Source: Escherichia coli (GTDB lineage: Bacteria; Pseudomonadota; Gammaproteobacteria; Enterobacterales; Enterobacteriaceae). From it: DNA of 64,000 bases. The stretch lies in assembly GCF_030384885.1 (NCBI RefSeq), contig NZ_CP128613.1; one strand, 5' to 3'. Positions 8,330 through 62,117 of this stretch are shown here, piece after piece. Below the pieces are notes generated by a model that searched no databases, was not told where the DNA came from, and saw only the letters and a program-made list of their open reading frames with translations. The stretch's first letter is position 1. The number at the start of each line of letters is the position of its first letter. A program made the translations under genes and the position numbers.

Positions 8330-11300
8330 TTACGCCTCCTCTTCATGACGAGCAAAGCGGCTTTTGGTCCACAATGCCAGGCGGTCGAACAGCAAATAAA
8401 TCACCGGCGTGGTAAACAGCGTCAGCACCTGGCTGACTATCAGACCGCCGACCATGCCGATACCTAACGGACGACGCAGTTCCGCGCCGACCCCGGTACT
8501 TAACATCAGCGGCAACGCGCCAAGCAGAGCCGCCAGAGTGGTCATCAGGATCGGACGAAAACGCAACAGACAGGCCTGGTAAATTGCATCGCGCGGCGAC
8601 ATGCCTTGCTCGCGCTCGGCAGCCAGCGCGAAGTCGATCATCATGATGGCGTTTTTCTTCACAATACCGATCAGCAAAATAATGCCGATGATGGCGATCA
8701 CATCCAGCTCACTTCCGGCAATCATTAGCGCCAGCAGTGCGCCAACACCTGCCGTTGGCAACGTCGAGAGAATGGTGATCGGGTGGATAAAGCTCTCGTA
8801 CAGAATGCCGAGCACGATATACATCGCCACCACCGCTGCGACAATCAGCCAGACAGTGCTGCCCAATGCCGACTGGAAGGCGAGGGTGCTGCCCTGGAAT
8901 TGTGTGGTGATATCCACCGGCAGATTCAGCGTCTTTTCGGTGTCCATAATCGCCTGCACCGCATCACCGAGAGAATAGTTATCCGGCACGTTAAAGGAGA
9001 TGGTCGTTACCGGGAACTGATCCAGATGGTTGATGGAGAGCGGCGCAAAACGCTGCTCAATTTTGGCAATTGAGCTTAGCGGCACCACGCCACCGTCGCT
9101 GCTGGTCAGGCGGATAGTATCCAGCGCCGCGAGGCCTGGGGTATTTTCGGTATTGTGCTCCAGCACCACGCGATACTGGTTAGCCTGAGTATAAATGGTG
9201 GAAATCAGTCGCTGACCAAACGCGTTGTACAGGGCGTTATCGACGTCCGCCATGCTGATCCCCAGACGGCTGGCGCTGTCGCGATCAACGTTGACATACG
9301 CCACCAGCCCTTGGTCCTGCCAGTCGCTGGAGACATCAGAAAGCTGTGGCAGCTGCTGGAGTTTTTCCACGAGTTGCGGCACCCAGGTGCTGAGCGCATC
9401 CAGCGATGTGGCCTGCAAGGTAAACTGGTACTGGGTGCGGCTGACCTGAGTATCGATAGTCAGATCCTGCGTTGGTTGAAGGAAGAGATCGACACCCGGC
9501 ACTTTATCTACTGCCGTTTGCAAACGGGCGATGACTTTTTGCACCCGATCATCACGTTCATCCAACGGTTTGAGGTTGATCTGTAAACGCGCACTGTTCA
9601 GCGACGGGTTAGTACCATCAACGCCAACAAATGAGGTCAGGCTTTGCACCGCCGGGTCCTGCAAAATCACATCAGCGACCTGACGTTGCCGCTGGGCCAT
9701 ATTGGCAAAGGAGCTGGATTGCGGTGCCTGCAAGGTGCCCTGAATAATGCCGTTGTCCTGTACCGGGAAGAAACCTTTCGGAATGAACACCCATAAGAGA
9801 ACGCTAAGCAGCAGCGTGCTGAGCGCTACGCTTAAAGTCAGCCACGGATGATTCAGCACTTTCGCCAGTCCACGACCATAGGCGGCAATTATCCTGTCGA
9901 ACATTTTTTCCGAGGCCCGGGAGAAGCGGTTCTGTTTACGCAGCGACTCCTGGCTGAGCATCCGCGCGCACATCATCGGTGTCAGGGTCAGCGACACCAC
10001 GGCTGAGATCAAAATCGCTACCGCCAGGGTAATGGCAAATTCGCGGAACAGTCGCCCGACGATATCGCCCATAAACAGCAGCGGGATCAGCACTGCAATC
10101 AGAGAGAAAGTCAGTGAGATAATGGTAAAACCGATTTCACCTGCGCCCTTGAGCGCCGCTGCCAGTGGTTTTTCGCCTTTTTCGATATAGCGGGAAATGT
10201 TTTCGATCACCACGATGGCGTCGTCGACAACGAATCCGGTGGCGATGGTTAACGCCATCAGCGTCAGGTTATTGATCGAAAAATCGAGAAACACCATGAC
10301 CGCGAAGGTGCCGATTAACGACAGCGGCACGGCGACGCCAGGAATGATGGTCGCCGGAATATTGCGCAGAAACAGGTAGATAATCATGACTACCAGCGCG
10401 ATAGCCATCATCAGTTCAAACTGGGTATCGTCGACTGATGCGCGGATATTGGTAGTGCGATCGGAAAGTACCGTCACTTTTACCGATTTCGGCAGACTCT
10501 CGGTAAGCTGTGGCAGCATCTGCCGAATGCTGTCGGCGGTAGAGATAATGTTAGCACCGGGCTGGCGCTGAACATTCATCACAATGGCCTGTTCTTTGTT
10601 CGCCCATGCGCCAAGCCAATTGTTTTCTGCGCCTTGTTCAACGGTTGCGACATCACCAAGACGAATCGGCGCGCCGTTCTGGTAGGCGATAATCAACTGG
10701 CGATATTCATCCGCAGATTGCATCTGGTCGTTCGCGGAAAGCGTGACCGCGCGGGAAGGGCCGTCGAGGCTACCTTTAGCCGAGTTAACGTTAGCGCCGG
10801 TAATGGCGGTGCGCACGGTTTCGCTGGTCAGGCCGAGGGCGGCAATCGCCTGGGCGTTAAGTTTGACGCGAACAGCCGGACGCTGACCGCCGGAAAGCGT
10901 CACCAGCCCGACGCCGGAAATCTGCGAGATCTTCTGCGCGACGCGGGTTTCCACCATATCTTCCACTTGGGTCATCGGCATGGCGGTTGAGGTGACGGCA
11001 AGCGTCATGATTGGCGGATCTGCCGGGTTCACTTTGCTGTAAACCGGCGGGTTAGGCAGATCGCTCGGCAACAAGTTGGTCGCAGCGTTAATCGCGGCCT
11101 GCACTTCCTGCTCGGCGACATCCAGCGGTAATGTTAGCTGGAACTGCAAAGTGATAACTGACGCGCCGCCGGAACTTTGCGACGACATCTGTTTCAGGCC
11201 GGACATCTGCCCGAACTGGCGTTCGAGCGGTGCGGTAACGGCAGAGGTCATGACATCCGGGCTGGCACCTGGGTAGAGGGTGACCACCTGAATGGTTGGA

Positions 11301-12771: not shown

Positions 12772-12929
12772 GGAGGAATTATGAAACACTGTCGGGAATC
12801 GTCTGAATGACGGGCACTTTTGCGAGCACGCATCCAGTAATAACACAGGAAACTATTTTATCTACGCGTTAGCGATAGACTGCATTCAGGGCAAAAGGAG
12901 GTAGGCCGACGATTTCAGCGGGACGCTGA

Positions 12930-13080
12930 AACGGGAAAGCCCCTCCCGAGGAAGGGGCCTTAAATAAGGAAAGGGTCATGATGAAGATACTCATCATCGT
13001 GGTGCTCTTAGTCGTTAGCTACCCAGCTTACTAAGACTACCAGGGCGGGGAAAACCCCGCTCTACCCTCACTCCTGAAAA
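12930..13080 (-). ncRNA. sibB: Sib-family antisense sRNA (antitoxin) fully overlapping the ibs ORF
   Basis: In K-12 each ibs is covered by a ~140-nt antisense Sib RNA. On the minus strand the hairpin GCCCCTTCCTCGGGAGGGGC followed by TTTCCCGTTT sits just upstream of the ibs start, consistent with a Sib terminator. Ends are approximate. Confidence 0.5.
12978..13034 (+). CDS. ibsB: Ibs-family type I toxin, 18 aa hydrophobic peptide (MMKILIIVVLLVVSYPAY)
   Basis: ATG ATG AAG start with SD-like AAGGAAAGGG upstream; peptide matches the Ibs pattern MMK-hydrophobic run-S-F/Y-P-A-Y. Symbol assigned only by synteny (copy nearest mdtA) and is uncertain. Confidence 0.7.
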   Translation: MMKILIIVVLLVVSYPAY

Positions 13081-13257
13081 TATGCCTTCACGGTCAGAAT
13101 GTCAATCCGCAGGCTTTGCAGTCTGCGATCCTGCCAGCAAATATTCTTTGCGAGTCGTTACGCAATAATCACAGATGAAACTATTTTATCTACGCGTTAG
13201 CGATAGACTGCATTCAGGGCGAAAGGAGGTAAGCCGATGATTTCAGCGGGACGCTGA

Positions 13258-13408
13258 AACGGGAAAGCCCCTCCCGAGGAAGGGGCCTTAAATAAGGAAA
13301 GGGTCATGATGAAGTGGATCATCATCGTGGTGCTCTTAGTCATTAGCTTACCGGCTTACTAAGACTACCAGGGCGGGGGAAACCCCGCTCAACCCTCACT
13401 CCTGAAAG
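13258..13408 (-). ncRNA. Sib-family antisense sRNA, middle copy
   Basis: Same hairpin plus T-tract arrangement as copy 1 (hairpin at 13267..13286); approximate ends. Confidence 0.45.
13306..13362 (+). CDS. Ibs-family type I toxin, 18 aa (MMKWIIIVVLLVISLPAY), middle copy
   Basis: Same architecture as the first copy within the second repeat unit; the peptide differs at a few positions. Confidence 0.65.
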   Translation: MMKWIIIVVLLVISLPAY

Positions 13409-13585
13409 TATGCCTTCACAATCAGATTGTCAATCCGCAGGCTTTGTAGTCTGCGATCCTGCCAGCAAATATTCTTTGCGAGACGTTACGCAATAATCAC
13501 ATGTGAAACTATTTTATCTGCAAGTTAGCGATAGACTGCTTGCATGGCGAAAGGAGGTAGGCCGCCGATTTCAGCGGGACGCTGA

Positions 13586-13736
13586 AACGGGAAAGCCCCT
13601 TCCGAGGAAGGGGCCTTAAATAAGGAAAGGGTCATGATGAAGCTACTCATCATCGTGGTGCTCTTAGTTATTAGCTGGCCAGCTTACTAAGACTACCAGG
13701 GCGGGGGAAACCCCGCTCTACCCTCACTCCTGAAGT
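13586..13736 (-). ncRNA. sibA: Sib-family antisense sRNA, third copy
   Basis: Hairpin GCCCCTTCCGAGGAAGGGGC at 13595..13614 with T-rich tail on the minus strand; approximate ends. Confidence 0.45.
13634..13690 (+). CDS. ibsA: Ibs-family type I toxin, 18 aa (MMKLLIIVVLLVISWPAY)
   Basis: Third repeat unit, same architecture. Symbol by synteny only (copy nearest yegL), uncertain. Confidence 0.65.
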   Translation: MMKLLIIVVLLVISWPAY

Positions 13737-13907
13737 TATGTTACTCCACCCTTATTGTCAATCTGTAAGTCCACGTTCTTGCGGGGCGAATAGCAAAACC
13801 CTCTGCGCTTATGGGCCGAATTCTGAAAGTTGCTTTGCCTGCTCTTATTTCATTATTGCAGTCGGTATGATACCGGACCTCAATAATTCTCTAAGAAAGG
13901 ATTTCTT

Positions 13908-29761: not shown

Positions 29762-29800
29762 CAGTGTATTGGTAGCTAAAAAGCCAGGGGCGGTAGCGTG
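29762..29800 (+). promoter_or_regulatory. JUMPstart element with ops (RfaH-dependent antitermination) in the wza leader
   Basis: CAGTGTATTGGTAGCTAAAAAGCCAGGGGCGGTAGCGTG contains the ops core GGCGGTAGCGTG about 180 nt upstream of wza. Confidence 0.85.
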
Positions 29801-44395: not shown

Positions 44396-45766
44396 ATGAA
44401 AAAATTAACCTGCTTTAAAGCCTATGATATTCGCGGAAAATTAGGCGAAGAACTGAATGAAGATATCGCCTGGCGTATTGGGCGTGCTTATGGCGAATTT
44501 CTCAAACCGAAAACCATTGTGTTAGGCGGTGACGTCCGTCTCACCAGCGAAACCTTAAAACTGGCGCTGGCAAAAGGGTTACAGGATGCGGGCGTTGACG
44601 TGCTGGATATCGGCATGTCCGGCACCGAAGAGATCTATTTCGCCACGTTCCATCTCGGCGTGGATGGCGGCATCGAAGTTACCGCCAGCCATAATCCGAT
44701 GGATTACAACGGCATGAAACTGGTGCGCGAAGGGGCTCGCCCGATCAGCGGTGATACCGGACTGCGCGACGTCCAGCGTCTGGCAGAAGCCAACGATTTT
44801 CCTCCCGTCGATGAAACCAAACGCGGTCGCTATCAGCAAATCAACCTGCGCGACGCTTACGTTGATCATCTGTTCGGTTATATCAACGTCAAAAACCTTA
44901 CGCCGCTCAAGCTGGTGATCAACTCCGGGAACGGTGCGGCGGGTCCGGTGGTGGACGCCATCGAAGCCCGCTTTAAAGCCCTCGGCGCACCCGTGGAATT
45001 GATCAAAGTACACAACACGCCGGACGGCAATTTCCCCAACGGTATTCCTAATCCATTGCTGCCGGAATGCCGCGACGATACCCGCAATGCGGTCATTAAA
45101 CACGGCGCGGATATGGGTATTGCCTTTGATGGCGATTTTGACCGCTGTTTCCTGTTTGACGAAAAAGGACAGTTTATCGAGGGCTACTACATTGTCGGCC
45201 TGCTGGCAGAAGCGTTCCTCGAAAAAAATCCCGGCGCGAAGATCATCCACGATCCACGTCTTTCCTGGAACACCGTTGATGTAGTGACTGCCGCAGGCGG
45301 CACCCCGGTGATGTCAAAAACCGGACACGCCTTTATTAAAGAACGTATGCGCAAGGAAGACGCCATCTATGGTGGCGAAATGAGCGCCCACCATTACTTC
45401 CGTGATTTCGCTTACTGCGACAGCGGCATGATCCCGTGGCTGCTGGTCGCCGAACTGGTGTGCATGAAAGGGAAAACGCTGGGCGAACTGGTGCGCGACC
45501 GCATGGCGGCATTCCCGGCAAGCGGTGAGATCAACAGCAAACTGGCGCACCCCGGTGAGGCGATTAATCGCGTCGAACAGCATTTTAGCCGCGAGGCGCT
45601 GGCGGTGGATCGCACCGATGGTATCAGCATGACCTTTGCCGACTGGCGCTTTAACCTGCGCTCCTCCAACACCGAACCGGTGGTACGCCTGAATGTGGAA
45701 TCGCGCGGTGATGTGCCGCTGATGGAAGCGCGAACGCGAACTCTGCTGACGTTGCTGAACGAGTAA
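44396..45766 (+). CDS. cpsG: Phosphomannomutase (colanic acid copy)
   Basis: Start at [17 protein letters not shown] gives 456 aa; active-site TASHNP and metal-binding DGDFDR. Confidence 0.95.
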
Positions 45767-45820
45767 TGTCGGATCTTCCCTTACCCCATTGCGGGTAAGG
45801 GGCTAATAACAGGAACAACG

Positions 45821-47215
45821 ATGACAAATCTAAAAAAGCGCGAGCGAGCGAAAACCAATGCATCGTTAATCTCTATGGTGCAACGCTTTTCAGATATCAC
45901 CATCATGTTTGCCGGGCTATGGCTGGTTTGCGAAGTCAGCGGACTGTCATTCCTCTACATGCACCTGTTGGTGGCGCTGATTACGCTGGTGGTGTTCCAG
46001 ATGTTGGGCGGCATCACCGATTTTTATCGCTCATGGCGAGGTGTTCGGGCAACGACAGAATTTGCCCTGCTGCTGCAAAACTGGACCTTAAGCGTGATTT
46101 TTAGCGCCGGACTGGTGGCGTTCAACAATGATTTCGACACGCAACTGAAAATCTGGCTGGCGTGGTATGGGCTGACCAGCATCGGGTTGGTGGCGTGTCG
46201 TTCGTGTATTCGCATTGGTGCGGGCTGGTTGCGTAATCATGGCTATAACAAGCGTATGGTTGCCGTGGCGGGGGATTTAGCTGCCGGGCAAATGCTGATG
46301 GAGAGCTTCCGTAATCAGCCGTGGTTAGGGTTTGAAGTGGTGGGCGTTTACCACGACCCAAAACCGGGCGGCGTTTCTAACGACTGGGCGGGCAATCTGC
46401 AACAGCTGGTCGAGGATGCAAAAGCGGGCAAGATTCACAACGTCTATATCGCGATGCAAATGTGCGACGGCGCACGAGTGAAAAAACTGGTCCATCAACT
46501 GGCGGACACCACCTGTTCGGTGCTGCTGATCCCCGACGTCTTTACCTTCAACATTCTCCATTCACGCCTCGAAGAGATGAACGGCGTTCCGGTGGTGCCG
46601 CTGTACGACACGCCACTTTCCGGGGTTAACCGCCTGATAAAACGTGCGGAAGACATTGTGCTGGCAACGCTGATCTTGCTGCTGATCTCCCCGGTGCTGT
46701 GCTGTATTGCGCTGGCGGTGAAATTCAGTTCACCAGGGCCGGTTATTTTCCGCCAGACTCGCTACGGCATGGATGGCAAGCCGATCAAAGTGTGGAAGTT
46801 CCGTTCCATGAAAGTGATGGAGAACGACAAAGTAGTGACCCAGGCGACGCAGAACGATCCGCGCGTCACCAAAGTGGGGAACTTTCTGCGCCGCACCTCG
46901 CTGGATGAATTGCCGCAGTTTATCAATGTGCTGACCGGGGGGATGTCGATTGTGGGGCCACGTCCGCACGCGGTGGCGCATAACGAACAATATCGCCAGC
47001 TCATTGAAGGCTACATGCTGCGCCACAAAGTGAAACCGGGCATTACCGGTTGGGCGCAGATTAACGGCTGGCGCGGCGAAACCGACACGCTCGAGAAAAT
47101 GGAAAAACGCGTCGAGTTCGACCTTGAGTACATCCGCGAATGGAGCGTCTGGTTCGATATCAAAATCGTTTTCCTGACGGTATTCAAAGGCTTCGTTAAC
47201 AAAGCGGCATATTGA
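45821..47215 (+). CDS. wcaJ: Undecaprenyl-phosphate glucose-1-phosphate transferase WcaJ
   Basis: 464 aa; N-terminal TM segments and C-terminal sugar-transferase domain (PGPVIFRQTRYGMDGKPIKVWKFRSM). Confidence 0.95.
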   Translation: MTNLKKRERAKTNASLISMVQRFSDITIMFAGLWLVCEVSGLSFLYMHLLVALITLVVFQMLGGITDFYRSWRGVRATTEFALLLQNWTLSVIFSAGLVAFNNDFDTQLKIWLAWYGLTSIGLVACRSCIRIGAGWLRNHGYNKRMVAVAGDLAAGQMLMESFRNQPWLGFEVVGVYHDPKPGGVSNDWAGNLQQLVEDAKAGKIHNVYIAMQMCDGARVKKLVHQLADTTCSVLLIPDVFTFNILHSRLEEMNGVPVVPLYDTPLSGVNRLIKRAEDIVLATLILLLISPVLCCIALAVKFSSPGPVIFRQTRYGMDGKPIKVWKFRSMKVMENDKVVTQATQNDPRVTKVGNFLRRTSLDELPQFINVLTGGMSIVGPRPHAVAHNEQYRQLIEGYMLRHKVKPGITGWAQINGWRGETDTLEKMEKRVEFDLEYIREWSVWFDIKIVFLTVFKGFVNKAAY

Positions 47216-53738: not shown

Positions 53739-53992
53739 ATCCAAGCCAATGTAACAATAATTTAGATAAATAGCGGCAGCTAACATCCCGGCGTCTATGC
53801 TTTAAACAAAGGAATGTTACTGTCGTTTTTCTTTTTAAAACAAAGAATAACAACGAGTTAACCTACTAAGTTTAATCTATTTTTTGTTGGATTTATCCTT
53901 GTTTCTGACAGCATTTGGTAAGACAATTGGCGTTTGAATTTAAGATAGCTTTGCGATAGCTAGCGGGGCGGAGTACATCTTTGGCATTTTGC

Positions 53993-54031
53993 TAGTGCAC
54001 TGGTAGCTGTTAAGCCAGGGGCGGTAGCGTG
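53993..54031 (+). promoter_or_regulatory. JUMPstart element with ops preceding the O-antigen cluster
   Basis: CTAGTGCACTGGTAGCTGTTAAGCCAGGGGCGGTAGCGTG, ops core GGCGGTAGCGTG, about 100 nt upstream of the first O-antigen gene. Confidence 0.85.
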
Positions 54032-54130
54032 GTAAGATTGTGTTTATATGATGCGTTCTCAAAATAAGAAATAATAATCCTGACTATCTTTATACTATTG
54101 ATAATATCTGAAATAAACTTAAGAGCAAAC

Positions 54131-55135
54131 ATGAAAGTAATTGTAAATAATTTTTTTGATGGTATTTTGAAAAGAGGAATACCGATCTATACTTCTGAAC
54201 TTGTGCAAAAGTTAAGAGACAATAATGTTCAGGTTATTTATGTTGCATGTCCAAAAGCATTCCATAAGCTGCCTTCATGGTTTCTGAATGTTCTTTTTAT
54301 AATAGTAGAGCAGCTTTTAATACCAATTATGGGTATATTTTATAGAACTAAGTATAATATATATCCCTATAATAGTAGTTCCATCATTGACTTGTTATTA
54401 GGTAAGGCAATTGTTATAATTCATGACTTCATTAGTCTTAAGAAAAATAAACGAAACCTTGCTGCCATTTATGTGAAAGTCTGTATTTATTTTTCATCTT
54501 TTTTAGCAAAGAAAGTAATATTTATTTCTCAAAGCACTCAGCGAGTATCTAAGAGAATATCGCTATTTAAGCGTATAGAATCTATCCTGCTCCCAAATCC
54601 ATTTTTCTCATTTGAGAAAATTGCTAATGTTACCGAAATAAAAGATCTTGGATATTTACTTCTAGTTTCAGGTTTAGGGGATAATAAGGATCTAGGCACA
54701 GCTCTGGACTATTATTTTTCAATCCCAAGGGAAGAAAGAATACCATTAAAAATATTAGGTTGTGGGAATGGTATTAGCAAGGTTAACGACTTAATTGATG
54801 GGCGGGATACAGATAAAGAAATTGAAATTATTGGTTTTGTTTCTTTAGAGGAAGTCGTCAAACTATATTGTAATTCTAAAATTGTTTGGGCTCATTCGCT
54901 TGCCGAGGGGTATGGCAGGACTTTAGCTGAAGCAAAACTCACATGCAAAAATGTTATATGCACACGGATCTCTGCTTTCCGCGAACAAAAGGATTCGAAT
55001 ATTTTCTTTTATACTTACTATTCTGAGTATTATGAAGTCTATTCATACTTGGTAGATAATTCACCCAGTGTCGAAAGGAAAGCTCTGCATGAACATATTT
55101 TATTTGAAAATGAATTGAGAAAGATTTATGAGTAA
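54131..55135 (+). CDS. O-antigen glycosyltransferase (GT1/GT4-like, possible mannosyltransferase)
   Basis: Track ORF 54098..55135 starts on a non-ATG codon; ATG at 54131 (MKVIVNNFFDG) is the likely start. C-terminal EX7E-like motif HSLAEGYGRTLAEA. Very AT-rich. Confidence 0.75.
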   Translation: MKVIVNNFFDGILKRGIPIYTSELVQKLRDNNVQVIYVACPKAFHKLPSWFLNVLFIIVEQLLIPIMGIFYRTKYNIYPYNSSSIIDLLLGKAIVIIHDFISLKKNKRNLAAIYVKVCIYFSSFLAKKVIFISQSTQRVSKRISLFKRIESILLPNPFFSFEKIANVTEIKDLGYLLLVSGLGDNKDLGTALDYYFSIPREERIPLKILGCGNGISKVNDLIDGRDTDKEIEIIGFVSLEEVVKLYCNSKIVWAHSLAEGYGRTLAEAKLTCKNVICTRISAFREQKDSNIFFYTYYSEYYEVYSYLVDNSPSVERKALHEHILFENELRKIYE

Positions 55136-56330
55136 TATTGATATAAATAAGAAACAGATATTAGTTTTGACTCCACGGTTCCCATTTCCTGTCATTGGTG
55201 GGGATCGATTACGTATCTATAAGATCTGTAAAGAACTGTCTAAGCATTATGATCTTACGTTGCTGAGTCTGTGTGATAAACGCGAAGAGCTCAACTATGA
55301 ATATGATCGTGAAGTTTTTAGTAGTGTTCACAGAGTATATCTTTCAAAGAAAAAATCTGTTTTAAATGTCATATTCTCTTTGTTTTCAAATACACCCCTA
55401 CAGATTGGGTATTATAAATCTAAAGAATTTGAAGATAAACTTAAGCAGTTATTACCTGAACATTCTGCAACTCTTTCACATTTGATAAGGGTTGGTGATT
55501 ATGTGAAAGAGAATAAAGATATAAATTTTTTAGAGATGACCGATGCCATTTCACTTAATTATAAACGAGTAAAGGAAAAAGCATCTTTATTGAGTTTAAA
55601 AACATTTGTATATTCTTTTGAACAAAAAAGACTCGAACGATATGAGCGAACTATAAATAACAAGTTCAGCTTGACTACTTTGGTATCACAGGTTGACTCC
55701 GATTATTTATATCCAGAGCGTCCGAATAATGTATTAGTTTGTGGAAATGGTGTTGATGCCGTTAGCTTACCTTTTTCAGAACGAAAAATAGCTAAAGATA
55801 AAAAGATAACCCTTGTATTTATAGGTAATTTATATTCTTTGCAAAATATGGATGGTGTGAGATGGTTCACCAAGGAAGTTTTACCATTTCTGAACAAGCA
55901 TGGTAATTTTGAATTTAAGGTCATCGGACGTATTACAGATAAAGATAAGAGTTGGTTAGAAAGCCAGCCTGGCGTTGTTGTCACAGGTGAAGTTGATAGC
56001 ATAACTTATGCAGCAGCTGATGGGCATATTGGTGTGTGTCCTATTAGATTAGGGGCAGGTATCCAAAATAAGGTACTTGAATATATGGCGTTGGGATTAC
56101 CTTGTATATCTTCTACTGTAGGCTTTGAAGGCTTGGGAGCAGAGGAGGGTAAGGAGATTTATGTTGCCAATACAAAAGAAGAATATTTACGTGTATTAAA
56201 TTATTTTATAACAAATCTGGATAAATATACCGAAACAGCATTAGTTGCGAAAAAGTTTATCGATGAGAATTTTTCATGGGAAGCTAAATTGAGCCCATAT
56301 ATCCAGAAAATTAAGGAGTCTGTTAAATAA
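55128..56330 (+). CDS. O-antigen glycosyltransferase (GT1/GT4 family)
   Basis: 400 aa; N-terminus [21 protein letters not shown] and C-terminal GT1 domain; AT-rich; overlaps the preceding gene by 8 bp. Confidence 0.8.
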
Positions 56331-56331
56331 A

Positions 56332-57747
56332 ATGATTATCCCAATTATTATGGCCGGTGGTTCTGGGACTCGCTTATGGCCTCTTTCGCGTTCGTTATAC
56401 CCGAAACAATTTTTATCATTGACTAATGAAAATAGTTTGCTCCAGGAAACGTTGAAGCGACTTGATGGATTAAATTGTTTGCCTCCTGTCATTGTTAGCA
56501 ATAATGAGCATAGATTTATTGTTGCTGAACAATTGCGACAGTTCGGTGTGGATGACTTCCAGATTATTCTAGAACCTGTAGGTAGAAATACTGCGCCCGC
56601 CGTTGCGCTGGCTGCTCTAAAGGCTCTGGAACTCCATGGCGATCATCATATGCTGGTTCTTGCTGCTGACCATGCTATTCAGGATATTGAAGCCTTCCAT
56701 GCAGCTGTTTTAGCTGCAGAACAAGAGTCCGTTGACAATAAGTTAGTGACTTTTGGCATCGTCCCGACCAAACCTGAAACTGGGTATGGCTATATTAAAA
56801 AGGGCGAACAAGTTAAAAACTCCGTATTTAAAGTAAATTCTTTCGTCGAAAAACCTGATTTAGAAACGGCTAAAAATTATCTCGAACAAAAATGCTATTT
56901 GTGGAATAGTGGTATGTTCATGTTCAAGGCGAGCGTATATTTAGATGAATTGAAAAAATTTCGCCCTGATATTTTAGCAGCGTGTAAAGAGTCGCTTTCC
57001 AGTGCTAGTACTGATCTAGATTTTATCAGATTAAATTCTGATGTCTTTGCAGAATGTCCCGATGAGTCAATTGATTATGCGGTAATGGAAAAAACTCAGG
57101 ATTGTGTAGTTATTCCACTTGATGCTGACTGGAGTGACATCGGATCATGGACATCACTTTGGGAAATATCAGAGAAAGATGAACATGAAAACGTATCGCA
57201 TGGTGATGTAATTAACTATAACAGCAGGAACAACTACATTTACTCTGAAGGTTCACTGATCAGCACTGTTGGAGTTAATAACCTTATTATAGTTCAAACT
57301 AAAGATGCGCTCCTGGTAGCACAGCAAGACAACGTACAAGACATAAAGAAAATTGTCGAAATTCTTAAAAAACAAAAACGTAGCGAACATATATCCCATC
57401 GCGAAGTCTATCGTCCTTGGGGACGTTATGATTCTGTAGAACGTGGCGACCGTTATCAGGTAAAACGTATTACCGTTAAGCCTGGTGAATGTCTCTCAAC
57501 ACAAATGCATCATCATCGAGCTGAGCATTGGGTGGTTGTCGCTGGTACTGCAAAGGTGACTTGCGGCGAACGCACTTATTTCGTCACTGAAAATGAGTCA
57601 ACTTTCATACCAATTGGCACAGTTCATACCTTGGAAAATCCAGGAAAGATACCATTAGAAGTAATTGAGATTCAGTCGGGTGTATATCTAGGTGATGATG
57701 ATATTGTGCGCCTAAGTGATAAATATGGTCGTGTTGAGGATAAATAA
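56332..57747 (+). CDS. manC: Mannose-1-phosphate guanylyltransferase (O-antigen copy)
   Basis: 471 aa; [16 protein letters not shown] nucleotidyltransferase motif and cupin C-terminus; paralogous to cpsB but with divergent AT-rich DNA. Confidence 0.93.
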
Positions 57748-57751
57748 TTAT

Positions 57752-59173
57752 ATGAATATTACCAATGATGTAATTAAAAATAGCGGAATTGCATTTGGTA
57801 CAAGTGGTGCTCGTGGATTAGTGAAAGATTTTACACCCAACGTGTGTGCTGCATTCACTTATGCTTTTATCGATGTAATGATGAAGGATTTTTCTTTTAA
57901 AGAGGTTGCGCTCGCAATAGATAATCGCCCAAGCAGCTATGCTATGGCACAAGCTTGCGCAGCAGCATTGTTGGAATGTAGTATTAAACCTATTTACTAC
58001 GGTGTAATTCCAACTCCAGCTTTGGCAAATCAAGCGATTGCCGATGGGATTCCTGCAATAATGGTTACTGGAAGTCATATTCCATTTGATAGAAATGGTT
58101 TGAAATTCTATCGTCCAGACGGGGAAATTTCAAAAGAAAATGAGAACAGCATTATACATGCTGAAAAAGAATATCCTGATGTAACTGTATTGCCAGAATT
58201 ACAATGTTCAAAGCGTGCCGCTGATACTTATATCGAGAGAAACACTTCAATTTTTTCAAATATATTTAAAGGTAAACGTATCGGGATTTATGAACATTCA
58301 AGTGCGGGACGGGATCTTTATCCAGAAATATTCAGTAAGCTTGGTGCTGAAGTTGTAAGTATTGGTAGAAGTGATGAGTTTGTGCCTATTGATACTGAAG
58401 CAGTATCAAAAGAAGATGAAGAAAAAGCTTTACACTGGTCATCTGAGTATGACCTCGATATGATTTTTTCTACCGATGGTGATGGCGATCGTCCTTTGGT
58501 TGCTGACGAAAATGGCGTTTGGTTACGGGGTGATATATTAGGACTATTTTGCTCAAAGGCAATGAATATTGAAGCGGTAGCTGTACCTGTAAGTTGTAAT
58601 ACGGTTATTCAGACCTGCGGGTGGTTTAATCATGTAACGCTGACTAAAATTGGTTCACCATACGTCATTTCAGCGTTTGATTCTCTGAATAATAGTTTTG
58701 ATAGTGTTGCAGGGTTTGAGGCTAACGGTGGGTATCTTTTAGGTAGCGATGTAAATTATAACAGCGGTATGATTAAAGCGCTTCCAACAAGAGATGCTGT
58801 TTTGCCTGCTTTAATGGTACTGGCACTGGCTATAAAAAATAATGTGACTATTTCAAAACTTTTGGCGGAGTTGCCACCACGATTTACCTATTCAAATAGA
58901 GTTCAAAATTTTGCAACAAGCAAAAGCAAAAGCATTATCGCGTCAGCTCAAGAAAATCCTCAAGAATTTATCGAAAGAATAGGCTTTGTCGACCTTCATG
59001 TACAATCGGTGGATACAATTGACGGGTTAAGATTGACACTAAGTGATGGTTCAATAATCCATTTGCGACCGTCAGGCAACGCACCTGAATTGCGATGCTA
59101 TGCAGAAGCAGATAACATAATAAAAGCTGAGAAATTAGTGTTAGAAATTTTGCATAAAGTTACTCTTTTGTAA
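57752..59173 (+). CDS. manB: Phosphomannomutase (O-antigen copy, PMM/PGM family)
   Basis: Track ORF from 57716; ATG at 57752 ([22 protein letters not shown]) is the likely start. Motifs [11 protein letters not shown] and DGDGDR. Confidence 0.88.
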
Positions 59174-59356
59174 AAAAATATAAACTTTTTTCTACTCTTG
59201 AGCGGTTTGTCATTGAACCGCTCAGTAATAGATTATTTTTAACTTGTTTATATTTAGCATTGGTGTTTTTATTTGCGTTCATCCCGAATAAGAGATTGTA
59301 AAATTAACTGTTTCTTGTTTTTCAAATGAGTTACTTCACTAGCAAAGCTAATTACT

Positions 59357-60688
59357 ATGCATAAGCAATATTATTCATTATTGTGCAATAAAATACAGTT
59401 TAAACATCTGGCTATATATTTTTCTGTATTTCTTTCACTATCCTCATGTTTCTTGTGGGGAGGGGCGGATACATTTGTATCGCAAGTGTATATTGATATT
59501 TTAGCCACTATATCTACAGCTCTATTAGTTATTTTGATGTTCTATTATTATATTAATAGAGTTCGCTATTTATCACTAACCTTACTTTTTGCATTCGTTT
59601 TTTCTTTGATTATTGGTTTGCCATCGATTTATCTTTACTATTTTAAAAACGCAAATCATGGGTTTGAAATAATTTGTATCTGGGGGATGTTGATCAATTC
59701 CATCCTTTACTTGCAAACAACAGAGACTGTCATAAAAGAAGAAAAAAGATATTTAACTAGTTTATTTTATATTTTGTTTTCTATTGTTGCACTGTGTCAA
59801 TTATGCAAAATATTAATTTATCTTATGTTTATATTGAATTCAGGAGAAGGGCATTTAGCAATTTATACTGAAAGCGAAGAATTGCTATCCCAAGTTCCAT
59901 TTTTTATTCGTGCTATTAGTGGTTTTGCAGTTGTAATGTCATTGTCCACTTTTTATTTTAAAACACCGACCTACATTAAAGTTATTGCATTTATTTTACT
60001 TGCATCTGATTTAGCTATTGGAATACGTAATAAGTTTTTCTTTTCAGTGATTTGTATTTTTATACTATATATGTACTCTAATGAGTATAGAGTAAGGAAT
60101 TTATTTAAGCAGCTCTCAAAACCAATATTTCTCATCGCGGGTTTTTTATGCTTCTCGATGGTATCGTATTTCCGTGAAGGGTACCAAATCGATTTTATGA
60201 ATTATATTGGCATTGTTTTAGATTCGCTATCCTCTACTCTTGGGGGGATGCAGAATTTGTTTGATATGCAATCATCAGGATGGGATCAACTTCATCCCGC
60301 TGTGGTATTCACACAAGTATTACCGCTAAGCGGTCTTGGTTTTCTTGATGATCAACAAATCGCAAAAGATTTTTCAATAATTGTTTTAGGTGATGTATCC
60401 TCTGGTATTGCGTTGTCATCTTCAGGATTGTTAGAGTCATCGTTGCTGAGTCTAAATTTGGGAGTGATTATTTATTTACTGTATTTATCAGGGGTGATGC
60501 TATTTATTAAATGGGGACTAAATAATCAACGGATAATAATAAACTTTGTTGCCATCTCCATGATATCTGGATTTTTTTATGCTGTTCGTGGTGAACTGAT
60601 TTTGCCATTGGCTTTTCTTCTAAAATCATTGCCGATTGTTCTTATATCTCCATTACTTGTTAAAAATAAAATTTATCATGGTCAGTAA
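59357..60688 (+). CDS. wzy: O-antigen polymerase Wzy (putative)
   Basis: 443 aa, highly hydrophobic multi-TM protein, very AT-rich, no recognisable enzymatic motif; start codon uncertain. Confidence 0.7.
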   Translation: MHKQYYSLLCNKIQFKHLAIYFSVFLSLSSCFLWGGADTFVSQVYIDILATISTALLVILMFYYYINRVRYLSLTLLFAFVFSLIIGLPSIYLYYFKNANHGFEIICIWGMLINSILYLQTTETVIKEEKRYLTSLFYILFSIVALCQLCKILIYLMFILNSGEGHLAIYTESEELLSQVPFFIRAISGFAVVMSLSTFYFKTPTYIKVIAFILLASDLAIGIRNKFFFSVICIFILYMYSNEYRVRNLFKQLSKPIFLIAGFLCFSMVSYFREGYQIDFMNYIGIVLDSLSSTLGGMQNLFDMQSSGWDQLHPAVVFTQVLPLSGLGFLDDQQIAKDFSIIVLGDVSSGIALSSSGLLESSLLSLNLGVIIYLLYLSGVMLFIKWGLNNQRIIINFVAISMISGFFYAVRGELILPLAFLLKSLPIVLISPLLVKNKIYHGQ

Positions 60689-60729
60689 GTGGTTTATTTT
60701 TCGACCAGGATCTCACCAGTAGGCATGAC

Positions 60730-61965
60730 ATGATCAAAGAAATTTTCTCCGATGGCATTTTTTCGCTATTTAATAAAATATGTTACTTCGGTTTTAAAAC
60801 ACTTGCAATAATTCTGATTACTCGTTCCTTAGGAGAAGATGTAGGCGGAGAGTTCATTTTTTTAGTTGGTTTTCTCGAAGTCCTTCGGGTGGTTACTGAT
60901 TTTGGTGTGGATCTGTTTGTTATAAAAAAATATAATGATTCTACAGATAAAATAAAACTATTAAATGTAACGTTTGCACAAAAAATTCTTTCTGGAGTAA
61001 TTGTTTCACTACTGTTTTGTTTGTATTCTTTTGTTCATGGTTATCAATATAATGTCTATATTCCTATTGTGTTAGCCTTACCTGTTGCTTTATTTTTTAA
61101 TTTCTCAAATAGCTATTTTCAATCTCTCAATTCCAATAAATCCCTCACGTTTCCGATCGCAATTGCATCTATTGCAACGTGTACGATCTTCGCTATTCAG
61201 TATTTTTTAAACGTTAAATTTAACGCATGGGATTACCTGTGTGTTGAACTATTATTCGTATCGCTGGTTACACTAAAACTATTCGTTAGTGTCAAGTTTA
61301 GGTTTATTAGAACGTCAGCTTTTGATGTGCTAATGTCAATTCTTTCTTTATATAAATATACATTAAGTATAGGTCTTACAGCTGTTGTTGTAATTATTTA
61401 TAGCCGTGTAGATAATTTTTATCTCAAGACATTTGCCCCAGGGGATCTTGCAGCATATGGCCAGATATTTAGGATGGTTGATCCACTGGTTATGGTTTCT
61501 TCTGTATTTTCTACAGTTGCCTATGCAAGATTTTGCCGAATTAACTTACAAGAAAAAAATGCTTTTACTAAGGTGTTTCAGTTCCTGTTATGTATTGTGG
61601 CATATGGCGTGCTGAGTTCATTAGTTTATTTCTTTATAATAAAATACCTGGGTCATTTTGTGTTGATTTCTAATGTTAATAATGATTTCTTGATAATGAT
61701 GTTCTTGATTGTTGCATGTGTGAAATGTATCAATGGTGGTACAACTGCAATAATTCAGTCACAGGGGTTTTATAAAGTGGGTTTGTATGTTTCGTATGTT
61801 TGCATTTTGACATCGATACCAACTATGTATTTCTTAATAATGAAGTACGGTGTTAAAGGTGCTGCTATGACGATTCTGCTTGTAGAGTGTATTAGTTTCA
61901 TATTACTTCTCTGCAGCTTTTTTATGATAAAAAAGATGCGTCCTAAAAAAACATTCGAAATGTAA
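60730..61965 (+). CDS. wzx: O-antigen flippase Wzx (putative)
   Basis: 411 aa multi-TM protein; N-terminal region ILITRSLGEDVGGEFIFLVGFLEVLRVVTDFGVD resembles the PST-family flippase N-terminus. Confidence 0.7.
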   Translation: MIKEIFSDGIFSLFNKICYFGFKTLAIILITRSLGEDVGGEFIFLVGFLEVLRVVTDFGVDLFVIKKYNDSTDKIKLLNVTFAQKILSGVIVSLLFCLYSFVHGYQYNVYIPIVLALPVALFFNFSNSYFQSLNSNKSLTFPIAIASIATCTIFAIQYFLNVKFNAWDYLCVELLFVSLVTLKLFVSVKFRFIRTSAFDVLMSILSLYKYTLSIGLTAVVVIIYSRVDNFYLKTFAPGDLAAYGQIFRMVDPLVMVSSVFSTVAYARFCRINLQEKNAFTKVFQFLLCIVAYGVLSSLVYFFIIKYLGHFVLISNVNNDFLIMMFLIVACVKCINGGTTAIIQSQGFYKVGLYVSYVCILTSIPTMYFLIMKYGVKGAAMTILLVECISFILLLCSFFMIKKMRPKKTFEM

Positions 61966-62117
61966 TCAATGAGTCCTCTTTGAATAGAATTAGTTTGTTC
62001 TATTTATGAACACTTAGCTTGAGTAAGTTCTAACATAGATTACTAATTGTTTGATACTATCTGCTTTACAAGCATAACCGCGTATGTCGCGGTGACCACA
62101 CCTGACAGGAGTATGTA

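Follow-up and report, generated by a model that had tools for sequence, protein, structure and literature searches.

Hairpins placed between the genes of an operon are known from several well-described bacterial systems. In the haemolysin operon, an ops- and RfaH-dependent system, the stem-loop between hlyA and hlyB is a terminator that is read through with the help of RfaH, and it separates upstream genes that are highly needed from membrane-export genes that are needed at low dose (PMC9306574). Stem-loop attenuators have also been reported downstream of wzc in the group 1 capsule and colanic acid clusters of E. coli and in the cps clusters of Klebsiella (PMC2516531, PMC3438125). At the galE-galT junction, a hairpin without U-tract lengthens the pause that Rho-dependent termination requires if the following cistron is poorly initiated, and it also blocks exonucleases (PMC9239205). 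Finally, REP/BIME elements, for example at malE-malF, are stable intercistronic hairpins without U-tract that stabilize the upstream mRNA and occur in hundreds of copies per genome. Regarding the role of RfaH at such sites, RfaH-dependent read-through was reportedly found in K30 by Rahn and Whitfield in 2003.

The window analyzed here, i.e. the whole stretch of 64,000 nt of E. coli DNA, harbours a predicted RNA hairpin in the gap between manB and wzy of an O-antigen cluster, which shares some properties with each of these systems. As in the case of hlyA-hlyB, the stem-loop is located in an intergenic gap of a co-directional cluster with an upstream ops site; unlike that stem-loop, it has no adjacent U-tract and shows no sequence relationship to it, and its function is a proposed one. 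Like the wzc attenuator it separates two functional blocks in a polysaccharide operon of the JUMPstart/ops type, whereas the wzc/wbaP structure is a predicted Rho-independent attenuator at another junction than manB/wzy, has a different sequence, and differs from the present case in that here the stem rather than the U-tract is conserved. The likeness to the galE hairpin concerns the GC-rich stem without U-tract downstream of a stop codon and the following cistron, here wzy, lacking a Shine-Dalgarno (SD) sequence. However, the galE hairpin lies within the coding sequence that follows, some 130 nt past the stop codon, whereas the window hairpin is found in a non-coding gap only 24 nt past the stop; moreover, the gal operon is not controlled by RfaH, and the spacer in the window is only weakly C-rich. 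With REP/BIME elements it has in common the stable intercistronic hairpin without U-tract that might serve as an exonuclease barrier, but it is a single-copy structure. The gap sequence was detected in 93 of the 5,426 complete E. coli genomes, with one copy in each and always at the manB-wzy junction, and the window hairpin does not resemble the REP-like hairpins that occur elsewhere in the window. A repeated or mobile element (REP, MITE or IS remnant) was rejected by a sensitive blastn search (E <= 1), which returned one copy per genome and cluster-bearing genomes only. Likewise, a known RNA family is ruled out, because Rfam gave no match in the gap, neither at E <= 1 nor at the gathering score, and none in 10 related loci.

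Over the stretches compared, the window is identical to E. coli 2013C-4282 (NZ_CP027579), and its right-hand part is an O-antigen cluster that belongs to the O17/O44/O73/O77/O106 type. The gene order is galF, JUMPstart RNA, two glycosyltransferases (GT), manC, manB, the gap, wzy, wzx and gnd; all genes between 54098 and 61965 are on the plus strand and form one co-directional cluster of approximately 8 kb. The JUMPstart RNA element (Rfam RF01707, 59.2 bits compared to a gathering score of 35) is located at 53993-54031 on the plus strand and includes an exact match to the ops site, GGCGGTAG, at 54020-54027 (plus strand), the RfaH loading site of the O-antigen operon, from which the hairpin is 5.2 kb downstream. 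According to the RefSeq annotation and the ORF table, the last gene 5' of the gap is manB (phosphomannomutase; 57752-59173, plus strand, stop codon TAA at 59171-59173), and the first gene 3' of it is wzy (O-antigen polymerase; 59357-60688, plus strand, ATG at 59357). In the RefSeq annotation of the identical genome 2013C-4282, the two flanking genes are named phosphomannomutase and O17/O44/O73/O77/O106-family wzy. The second gene past the hairpin is wzx, which is annotated in RefSeq as the O-antigen flippase (60730-61965, plus strand). No other gap within the operon is as long as the one between manB and wzy, which measures 183 bp (59174-59356). An initial annotation of the window had placed a hairpin inside the O-antigen operon, which is borne out by the co-directional cluster and the upstream JUMPstart/ops element, and the gap length, the gene names and the sequence that it gave are all correct.

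Folding of the gap predicts a stem-loop at 59198-59225 on the plus strand, with the loop UCAU at 59210-59213 and a stem of 12 bp, some of them G.U pairs, in which 59198-59209 is paired with 59214-59225. The initial annotation had noticed the inverted repeat GAGCGGTT-TGTCATTG-AACCGCTC, which is indeed present at 59200-59223; the perfect repeat is one pair longer, such that the core of the hairpin is a perfect 9-bp inverted repeat made of TGAGCGGTT (59199-59207) and AACCGCTCA (59216-59224). The folding energy amounts to -16 kcal/mol, or -17.7 kcal/mol when a weak outer helix is included. This optional outer helix of 4 A/U-rich base pairs (59191-59194 with 59229-59232, whole structure 59191-59232, plus strand) closes a 3x3 internal loop; it can be seen in the window and in E. 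coli 042, but is absent from the related loci L007 and L008 and hence probably lies outside the conserved element. Compared to dinucleotide shuffles, the 42-nt hairpin is unusually stable (z = -5.0, none of 200 shuffles equally stable), and the gap as a whole folds with z = -3.5. A perfect inverted repeat of 8 bp is nothing unusual as such, with about 20 places in the 64-kb window; the hairpin is the sole 32-nt segment reaching -16.1 kcal/mol or below on the plus strand of the low-GC cluster (53739-62117). The window hairpin is slightly more stable in the antisense than in the sense direction (-19.1 versus -17.7 kcal/mol), and therefore its assignment to one strand depends on the relatives. 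A further outer inverted repeat of 10 bp, AAATATAAAC/GTTTATATTT (59176-59185 and 59246-59255), was considered and dropped; it is not kept in L007 and L008 and probably arose by chance in AT-rich DNA.

The homologous sequence class of the hairpin comprises the window, E. coli 042, L007 and the Salmonella enterica locus L008, in total four distinct sequences only. The Wzy proteins of L007 and L008 share 88% and 70% identity with that of the window, and gnd of L008 is 86% identical to its E. coli counterpart. Within this four-sequence class, pairing is kept in 95.8% of the pair cells, including two double-sided changes, in which one pair turned from G-C to A-U and another from U-A to G-U, and five further one-sided compatible changes. 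The hairpin sequence itself is just 71% (L007) and 63% (L008) identical to that of the window. Random mutation at the observed density kept an energy of -13 kcal/mol or below in only 0.35% and 0.11% of the trials (p = 0.0035 and 0.0011, respectively), and a shuffle control for pairing conservation was marginal (29 of 500). For the upstream flank and the remainder of the gap, global alignments of E. coli with Salmonella give identities of 43-53%. Inside E. coli, the gap diverges by 3.3% as compared to about 0.9% in the flanking genes. Positions 59215, 59235, 59239, 59243, 59317 and 59343 distinguish the window allele from the one common in E. coli, with G59215 of the window being T in the other 92 E. 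coli genomes; none of these differences touches the 10 core pairs. Judging by this substitution pattern, the predicted stem is maintained by selection at the manB-wzy junction.

Further relatives were gathered by a search with Wzy and subsequent retrieval of the encoding contigs, which yielded 10 further lineages, represented by 11 further loci (L007-L019); among the sources are Salmonella enterica, Citrobacter, Enterobacter hormaechei, E. bugandensis, Ewingella and Xenorhabdus bovienii. All share the order GT-GT-manC-manB-gap-wzy-wzx, with the wzy homologue always directly after manB, a gap of 112-213 bp and Wzy identities from 88% down to 48%. A hairpin beginning 2-27 nt past the manB stop codon was found in 11 of 11 lineages. 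In 10 of these, at most two other sense-strand hairpins of the cluster are more stable than it, and its local empirical p is <= 0.035; the exception is the Xenorhabdus locus L013, where the hairpin is mediocre (rank 16, p = 0.19). Sequence comparison sorts the hairpins into about five mostly unrelated classes, between which no alignment is obtained. A pattern of stem preservation also appears in a pair of Citrobacter-type loci, in which two stem positions show double-sided changes and 4 of the 8 loop bases differ. In L007, L008, L009, L011 and L017 the sense hairpin is more stable than the antisense one by 3.6-11 kcal/mol via G.U pairs, and the antisense hairpin is never more stable than the sense one by more than 2.7 kcal/mol. 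This sense-strand bias of G.U pairs indicates an RNA-level role on the mRNA strand. A stem with an adjacent U-tract is found in five of the 11 lineages (L009, L011, L017, L018 and L019), and a bare hairpin without adjacent U-tract is seen in the class of the window and in that of Enterobacter. Because only these five lineages possess a terminator-like site, the shared and conserved element is the hairpin behind manB rather than the U-tract. A Wzy alignment and ManB, each used to scan species-representative genomes, gave no match, in a set with one genome per species in which the strain-dependent variation of O-antigen clusters has to be kept in mind. Collectively, the comparison of the gaps indicates that a hairpin at the manB-wzy junction is a conserved feature of the whole cluster family despite the turnover of its sequence.

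The possibility that any manB gene is followed by such a structure was evaluated in a control set, which was obtained by a pattern scan with a conserved C-terminal coding motif of the ManB subfamily and comprised 120 metagenomic loci, 115 of them usable; one of the 115 is an E. coli member of the manB-wzy family itself. A post-stop hairpin at a local p <= 0.05 was found at 12 of the 115 loci (10%), at 3 of the 40 loci with a co-directional gene 40-300 nt downstream and at 4 of the 27 loci (15%) in a GC-matched subset (<0.43), compared with 10 of 11 lineages of the manB-wzy family at the cut-off p <= 0.035. The difference is significant in Fisher tests against all control loci (p = 3e-8) and against the GC-matched subset (p = 2e-5). 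In further serogroups of E. coli, this manB lineage forms the last gene before gnd, and a strong hairpin follows it in one type (L021) and not in two others. Hence, a 3' hairpin after every manB is ruled out by the background among the 115 genes and by the manB-gnd serogroups.

Between the hairpin and wzy, an AU-rich untranslated spacer of 131 nt (59226-59356, plus strand) was identified, which contains no plus-strand ORF of at least 20 amino acids; the GC content of the entire 183-nt gap is 0.28. Within the spacer the C/G ratio amounts to 0.7-1.0, and around the start of wzy it is 1.2-1.5 (90th percentile of the cluster 1.23); the C content of the spacer region is about 12-17%, so that this region is U-rich rather than C-rich and only weakly rut-like. 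The lack of an obvious Shine-Dalgarno sequence in front of wzy, which had been noticed before, was confirmed; within the 25 nt 5' of the ATG, no anti-SD duplex is better than -0.1 kcal/mol, in comparison to -4.1 to -8.7 kcal/mol for manC, manB, wzx and gnd. The SD sequence of wzy is weak or absent across all related lineages, and with the SD as the only proxy wzy appears poorly initiated. A possible uORF of 12 codons (MSYFTSKANYYA*; 59326-59364, plus strand), the stop of which overlaps the wzy start codon, is doubtful and is not preceded by an SD sequence. L007 retains the uORF and the Salmonella locus L008 has no counterpart, and because of this absence it is not relied on as a functional element. 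An ORF of 40 amino acids on the minus strand (59160-59282) was likewise discarded, as E. coli 042 has a stop codon in it and neither L007 nor L008 has it intact.

Taken together, we propose that the element is a leaky, attenuator-like hairpin that forms and stabilizes 3' ends and thereby lowers wzy-wzx relative to manCB, with RfaH setting the read-through; we assign this reading a probability of about 40%. The hairpin would then probably limit the amount of message that reaches wzy and wzx. In this model, the ribosome would halt at the manB stop codon and RNA polymerase would enter the 183-nt untranslated gap, where transcription and translation might become uncoupled, given that the gap is untranslated and AU-rich and that a Shine-Dalgarno sequence is missing from wzy. 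The hairpin, forming 24 nt beyond the stop codon, would lengthen pausing, and a fraction of the complexes could be terminated, either by Rho in the untranslated spacer or weakly without any factor. Subsequently the hairpin would bar 3'->5' exonucleases, and owing to this block the GT-GT-manC-manB transcripts ending at the hairpin are proposed to be stable and to outnumber the full-length ones. The net outcome would be a high level of the manCB and transferase message and a low level of the wzy-wzx message, with the RfaH loaded at ops (54020-54027) determining how many polymerases read through. The Rho step is the weakly supported part of this scheme, because the C/G ratio of 0.7-1.5 makes the spacer a poor to moderate Rho loading site. 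RNA polymerase modified by RfaH is expected to resist Rho, and hence the terminated fraction could be negligible in the wild type. The scheme resembles the galE-galT junction hairpin, which has been described experimentally, and the stem-loops of other RfaH operons. The proposed low wzy message agrees with reports that Wzy is held at very low levels (PMC12004945). In a broader and more tentative form, the position-specific hairpin could be seen as conserved punctuation of the GT-GT-manC-manB / wzy-wzx clusters of Enterobacterales that sets a low dose of Wzy and Wzx compared to the sugar-synthesis genes, and it might act as a re-coupling pause for ribosome loading on the SD-less wzy behind the RfaH-bound polymerase; we regard this generalization as conceivable and still doubtful.

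Another explanation would be a weak intrinsic, i.e. Rho-independent, terminator or attenuator, in which the hairpin and a T-run release some polymerases and RfaH raises read-through. The required stem is present as a stable GC-containing 12-bp stem-loop, its position 24 nt past a stop codon is typical, and precedents exist in RfaH operons (PMC9306574; PMC3438125). The T-rich tail mentioned in the initial annotation also exists, as the run TTATTTTT at 59233-59240 on the plus strand, which would follow directly 3' of the structure if the outer helix were formed. However, this helix is not conserved, and the run begins 7 nt past the 12-bp stem after the non-U-rich bases TAATAGA, whereas a terminator should have a U-tract of about 7-9 nt beginning 0-2 nt past the stem, which is not found in the window. 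Intrinsic termination generally needs such a U-tract (PMC3993855). Nor is the run conserved. It reads TTGTTTAT, i.e. is interrupted, in 92 of the 93 E. coli genomes with the cluster; L007 has a T6 run at similar distance, but the Salmonella locus L008 shows no run at that position. The manB-wzy hairpin was not called by a consensus terminator scan and its re-implementation (a strict stem scan, which overlooked the gnd terminator with its bulged stem, is a rough guide). A score of the d'Aubenton-Carafa type, approximate and also a rough guide as it was computed with modern energy parameters, is negative throughout; the window scores -10, the common E. coli allele -21, and L007 and L008 lie at -37 to -46. 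The window hairpin is thus not a canonical intrinsic terminator, and despite the canonical-looking combination of stem and U-tract at the same junction in five related lineages, this explanation is unlikely. A mechanism based on pausing, Rho-dependent termination or RNA stability matches the anatomy more closely than plain intrinsic attenuation does. For the attenuator or pause site suggested in the initial annotation this means that the selected stem, the ops context, the SD-less wzy and the U-tract in five of 11 lineages speak for it, but that the U-tract is missing in the window and its E. coli and Salmonella homologues. A literature search combining Term-seq, RfaH and O-antigen gave no match. 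Next to the leaky hairpin, a pure mRNA-stability element without any effect on transcription deserves attention, in which the hairpin shields the GT-manCB message from 3'->5' exonucleases after RNase E cleavage in the spacer or during general 3' decay, as do REP and other intercistronic stem-loops. It is consistent with a stable GC-cored hairpin without U-tract that has 131 nt of unstructured, untranslated and AU-rich RNA behind it, with conservation falling on the stem and not on the tail, and with the documented blocking of exonucleases by such hairpins (PMC9239205). Its outcome overlaps with that of the preferred reading, from which it differs only in how the 3' end first arises; yet it leaves the full terminator-like sites in several relatives unexplained, and as the entire explanation we consider it improbable.

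It might also be asked whether the hairpin has any function, as it could be the relic of an old terminator of a manCB-terminal cluster that was left behind when wzy-wzx joined downstream. The occurrence of the same manB lineage in front of gnd in other E. coli serogroups, with the strong hairpin of L021, would suit this scenario, as would the faster evolution of the gap relative to the flanking genes in E. coli, and intergenic gaps in O-antigen clusters have been read as marks of recent assembly or recombination junctions (PMC5399914). Nevertheless, a relic is hard to reconcile with compensatory changes that preserve pairing amid flanking gap sequence of such low identity between E. coli and Salmonella, with the persistence of junction and hairpin over six genera down to 48% Wzy identity, and with a hairpin frequency far above the 10-15% after other manB genes, and it appears highly unlikely. 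Even less probable, to the point of being nearly negligible, is an element acting at the DNA level, be it an operator for a dimeric regulator or a terminator combined with an internal promoter that separates wzy-wzx. The palindrome is perfect over 9 bp and a sigma-70-like sequence, TTGTCA-16-TAGATT (59207-59234, 9 of 12 matches), overlaps the hairpin, but this site is missing in L007 and L008. A promoter scan over 12 related gaps gave 4 hits compared to 5.2 expected from shuffles, none of them conserved, which leaves an internal sigma-70 promoter unsupported. Moreover, the unrelated sequences of the hairpins between classes argue against a sequence-specific protein site, and the G.U pairs favour an RNA structure over a DNA palindrome.

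Hairpins within RfaH-controlled operons for polysaccharides and toxins are an already known theme, and no new principle is added here. The most useful new point is that the manB-wzy junction hairpin is conserved family-wide though its sequence has turned over. Rare codons and low GC content are known reasons for low Wzy levels, and weak ribosome-binding sites are also among them; the conserved hairpin upstream of wzy would add a layer of Wzy control at the transcript level. Stem-breaking and compensatory mutations might provide a handle on the balance between nucleotide-sugar synthesis and the dosage of polymerase and flippase, and the same handle could show what RfaH overcomes inside O-antigen operons. 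Furthermore, this cluster type is found in pathogens, among them enteroaggregative E. coli 042, an O44 strain, and an STEC lineage of the O77 group associated with cases of haemolytic uraemic syndrome in France in 2025, and hence the hairpin could affect O-antigen expression in clinically relevant strains.

The intergenic region between manB and wzy (59174-59356), in which the manB-wzy hairpin, an RNA stem-loop, occupies 59198-59225 on the plus strand, is represented in this strain by an unusual allele. It stands apart from the gap sequence of 92 other E. coli genomes by 6 differences over the 183 bp, whereas divergence in the flanking genes is about 0.9%. The T5 run and A59235 of this allele agree with the more distant lineage of L007, a related locus whose Wzy is 88% identical, and because of this sharing both features look ancestral. 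The T-run downstream of the hairpin (59233-59240) appears to have been lost in the common E. coli gap allele. At the other end of the gap, a 12-codon ORF (MSYFTSKANYYA*, 59326-59364) overlaps with its terminal TAA the ATG of wzy (ATGCATAA). It is retained in L007, while no counterpart of this ORF was found in the Salmonella enterica locus L008, and it could permit translational coupling into wzy, which lacks a Shine-Dalgarno sequence.

A stable hairpin was also found behind the colanic-acid homologue of manB. The gene cpsG ends at 45766, and the hairpin CCCTTACCCC-ATTGCG-GGGGTAAGGG (45777-45802; -17.1 kcal/mol, local p = 0.03) begins 11 nt past its stop codon; like the manB-wzy hairpin it is devoid of a U-tract. 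It is located inside the operon, upstream of an ORF of 464 aa (45821-47215), which is presumably wcaJ. As the second operon-internal hairpin 3' of a manB gene, it may have the same mode of action as the manB-wzy hairpin. The start of cpsG is marked by another RNA feature, an algC RNA motif (RF02929, 44342-44391, 73.9 bits) situated directly 5' of, or overlapping, the start of the gene. The O-antigen manB of the window gave no match to this motif, and in the related clusters with a cpsG-like ManB of 456 aa, where manC and manB are separated by gaps of 54-113 nt, no Rfam match was obtained at the gathering score.

In the relatives from Enterobacter and Citrobacter (L015 3887-4000, L016 3880-4000, and the gaps of L018 and L019), the stretch from the post-manB hairpin to wzy contains a second hairpin (GTTGGGAAG...TTCC), small and conserved, which in Enterobacter immediately precedes the ATG. 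The manB-wzy junction is not universal to this Wzy family, because a more distant homologue from Yersinia pseudotuberculosis (L020 2924-4000, 46% identical) sits in another gene context, in which a glycosyltransferase gene is followed by a non-coding gap of 1,077 bp and the Wzy homologue, with manC downstream.

Besides the O-antigen copy, a second JUMPstart was detected at 29762-29800 (57 bits) with its ops element at 29789; the GDP-mannose/colanic-acid genes, which start near 39 kb, lie approximately 9 kb downstream of this JUMPstart. In the whole window there are six copies of the octamer GGCGGTAG versus 1.5 expected, a number reached in 0 of 100 shuffles; four of the six lie at 10018 (minus strand), 10535, 29202 and 42618. 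Where the GC content of the window is higher, REP-like palindromes (GCCGGATG... / GCCTGATGCGACGC...; 1676, 20353, 27304, 27695 and 33744) make up several of the most stable hairpins; the manB-wzy hairpin is unrelated to them. Finally, three tandem copies of the SIB antitoxin RNA (137-139 bits each) are encoded on the minus strand at 12838-13761, with a period of 328 bp and 92% matches. The corresponding locus of E. coli K-12 has two copies (sibA and sibB); hence, the present strain may possess an additional Ibs/Sib toxin-antitoxin unit.
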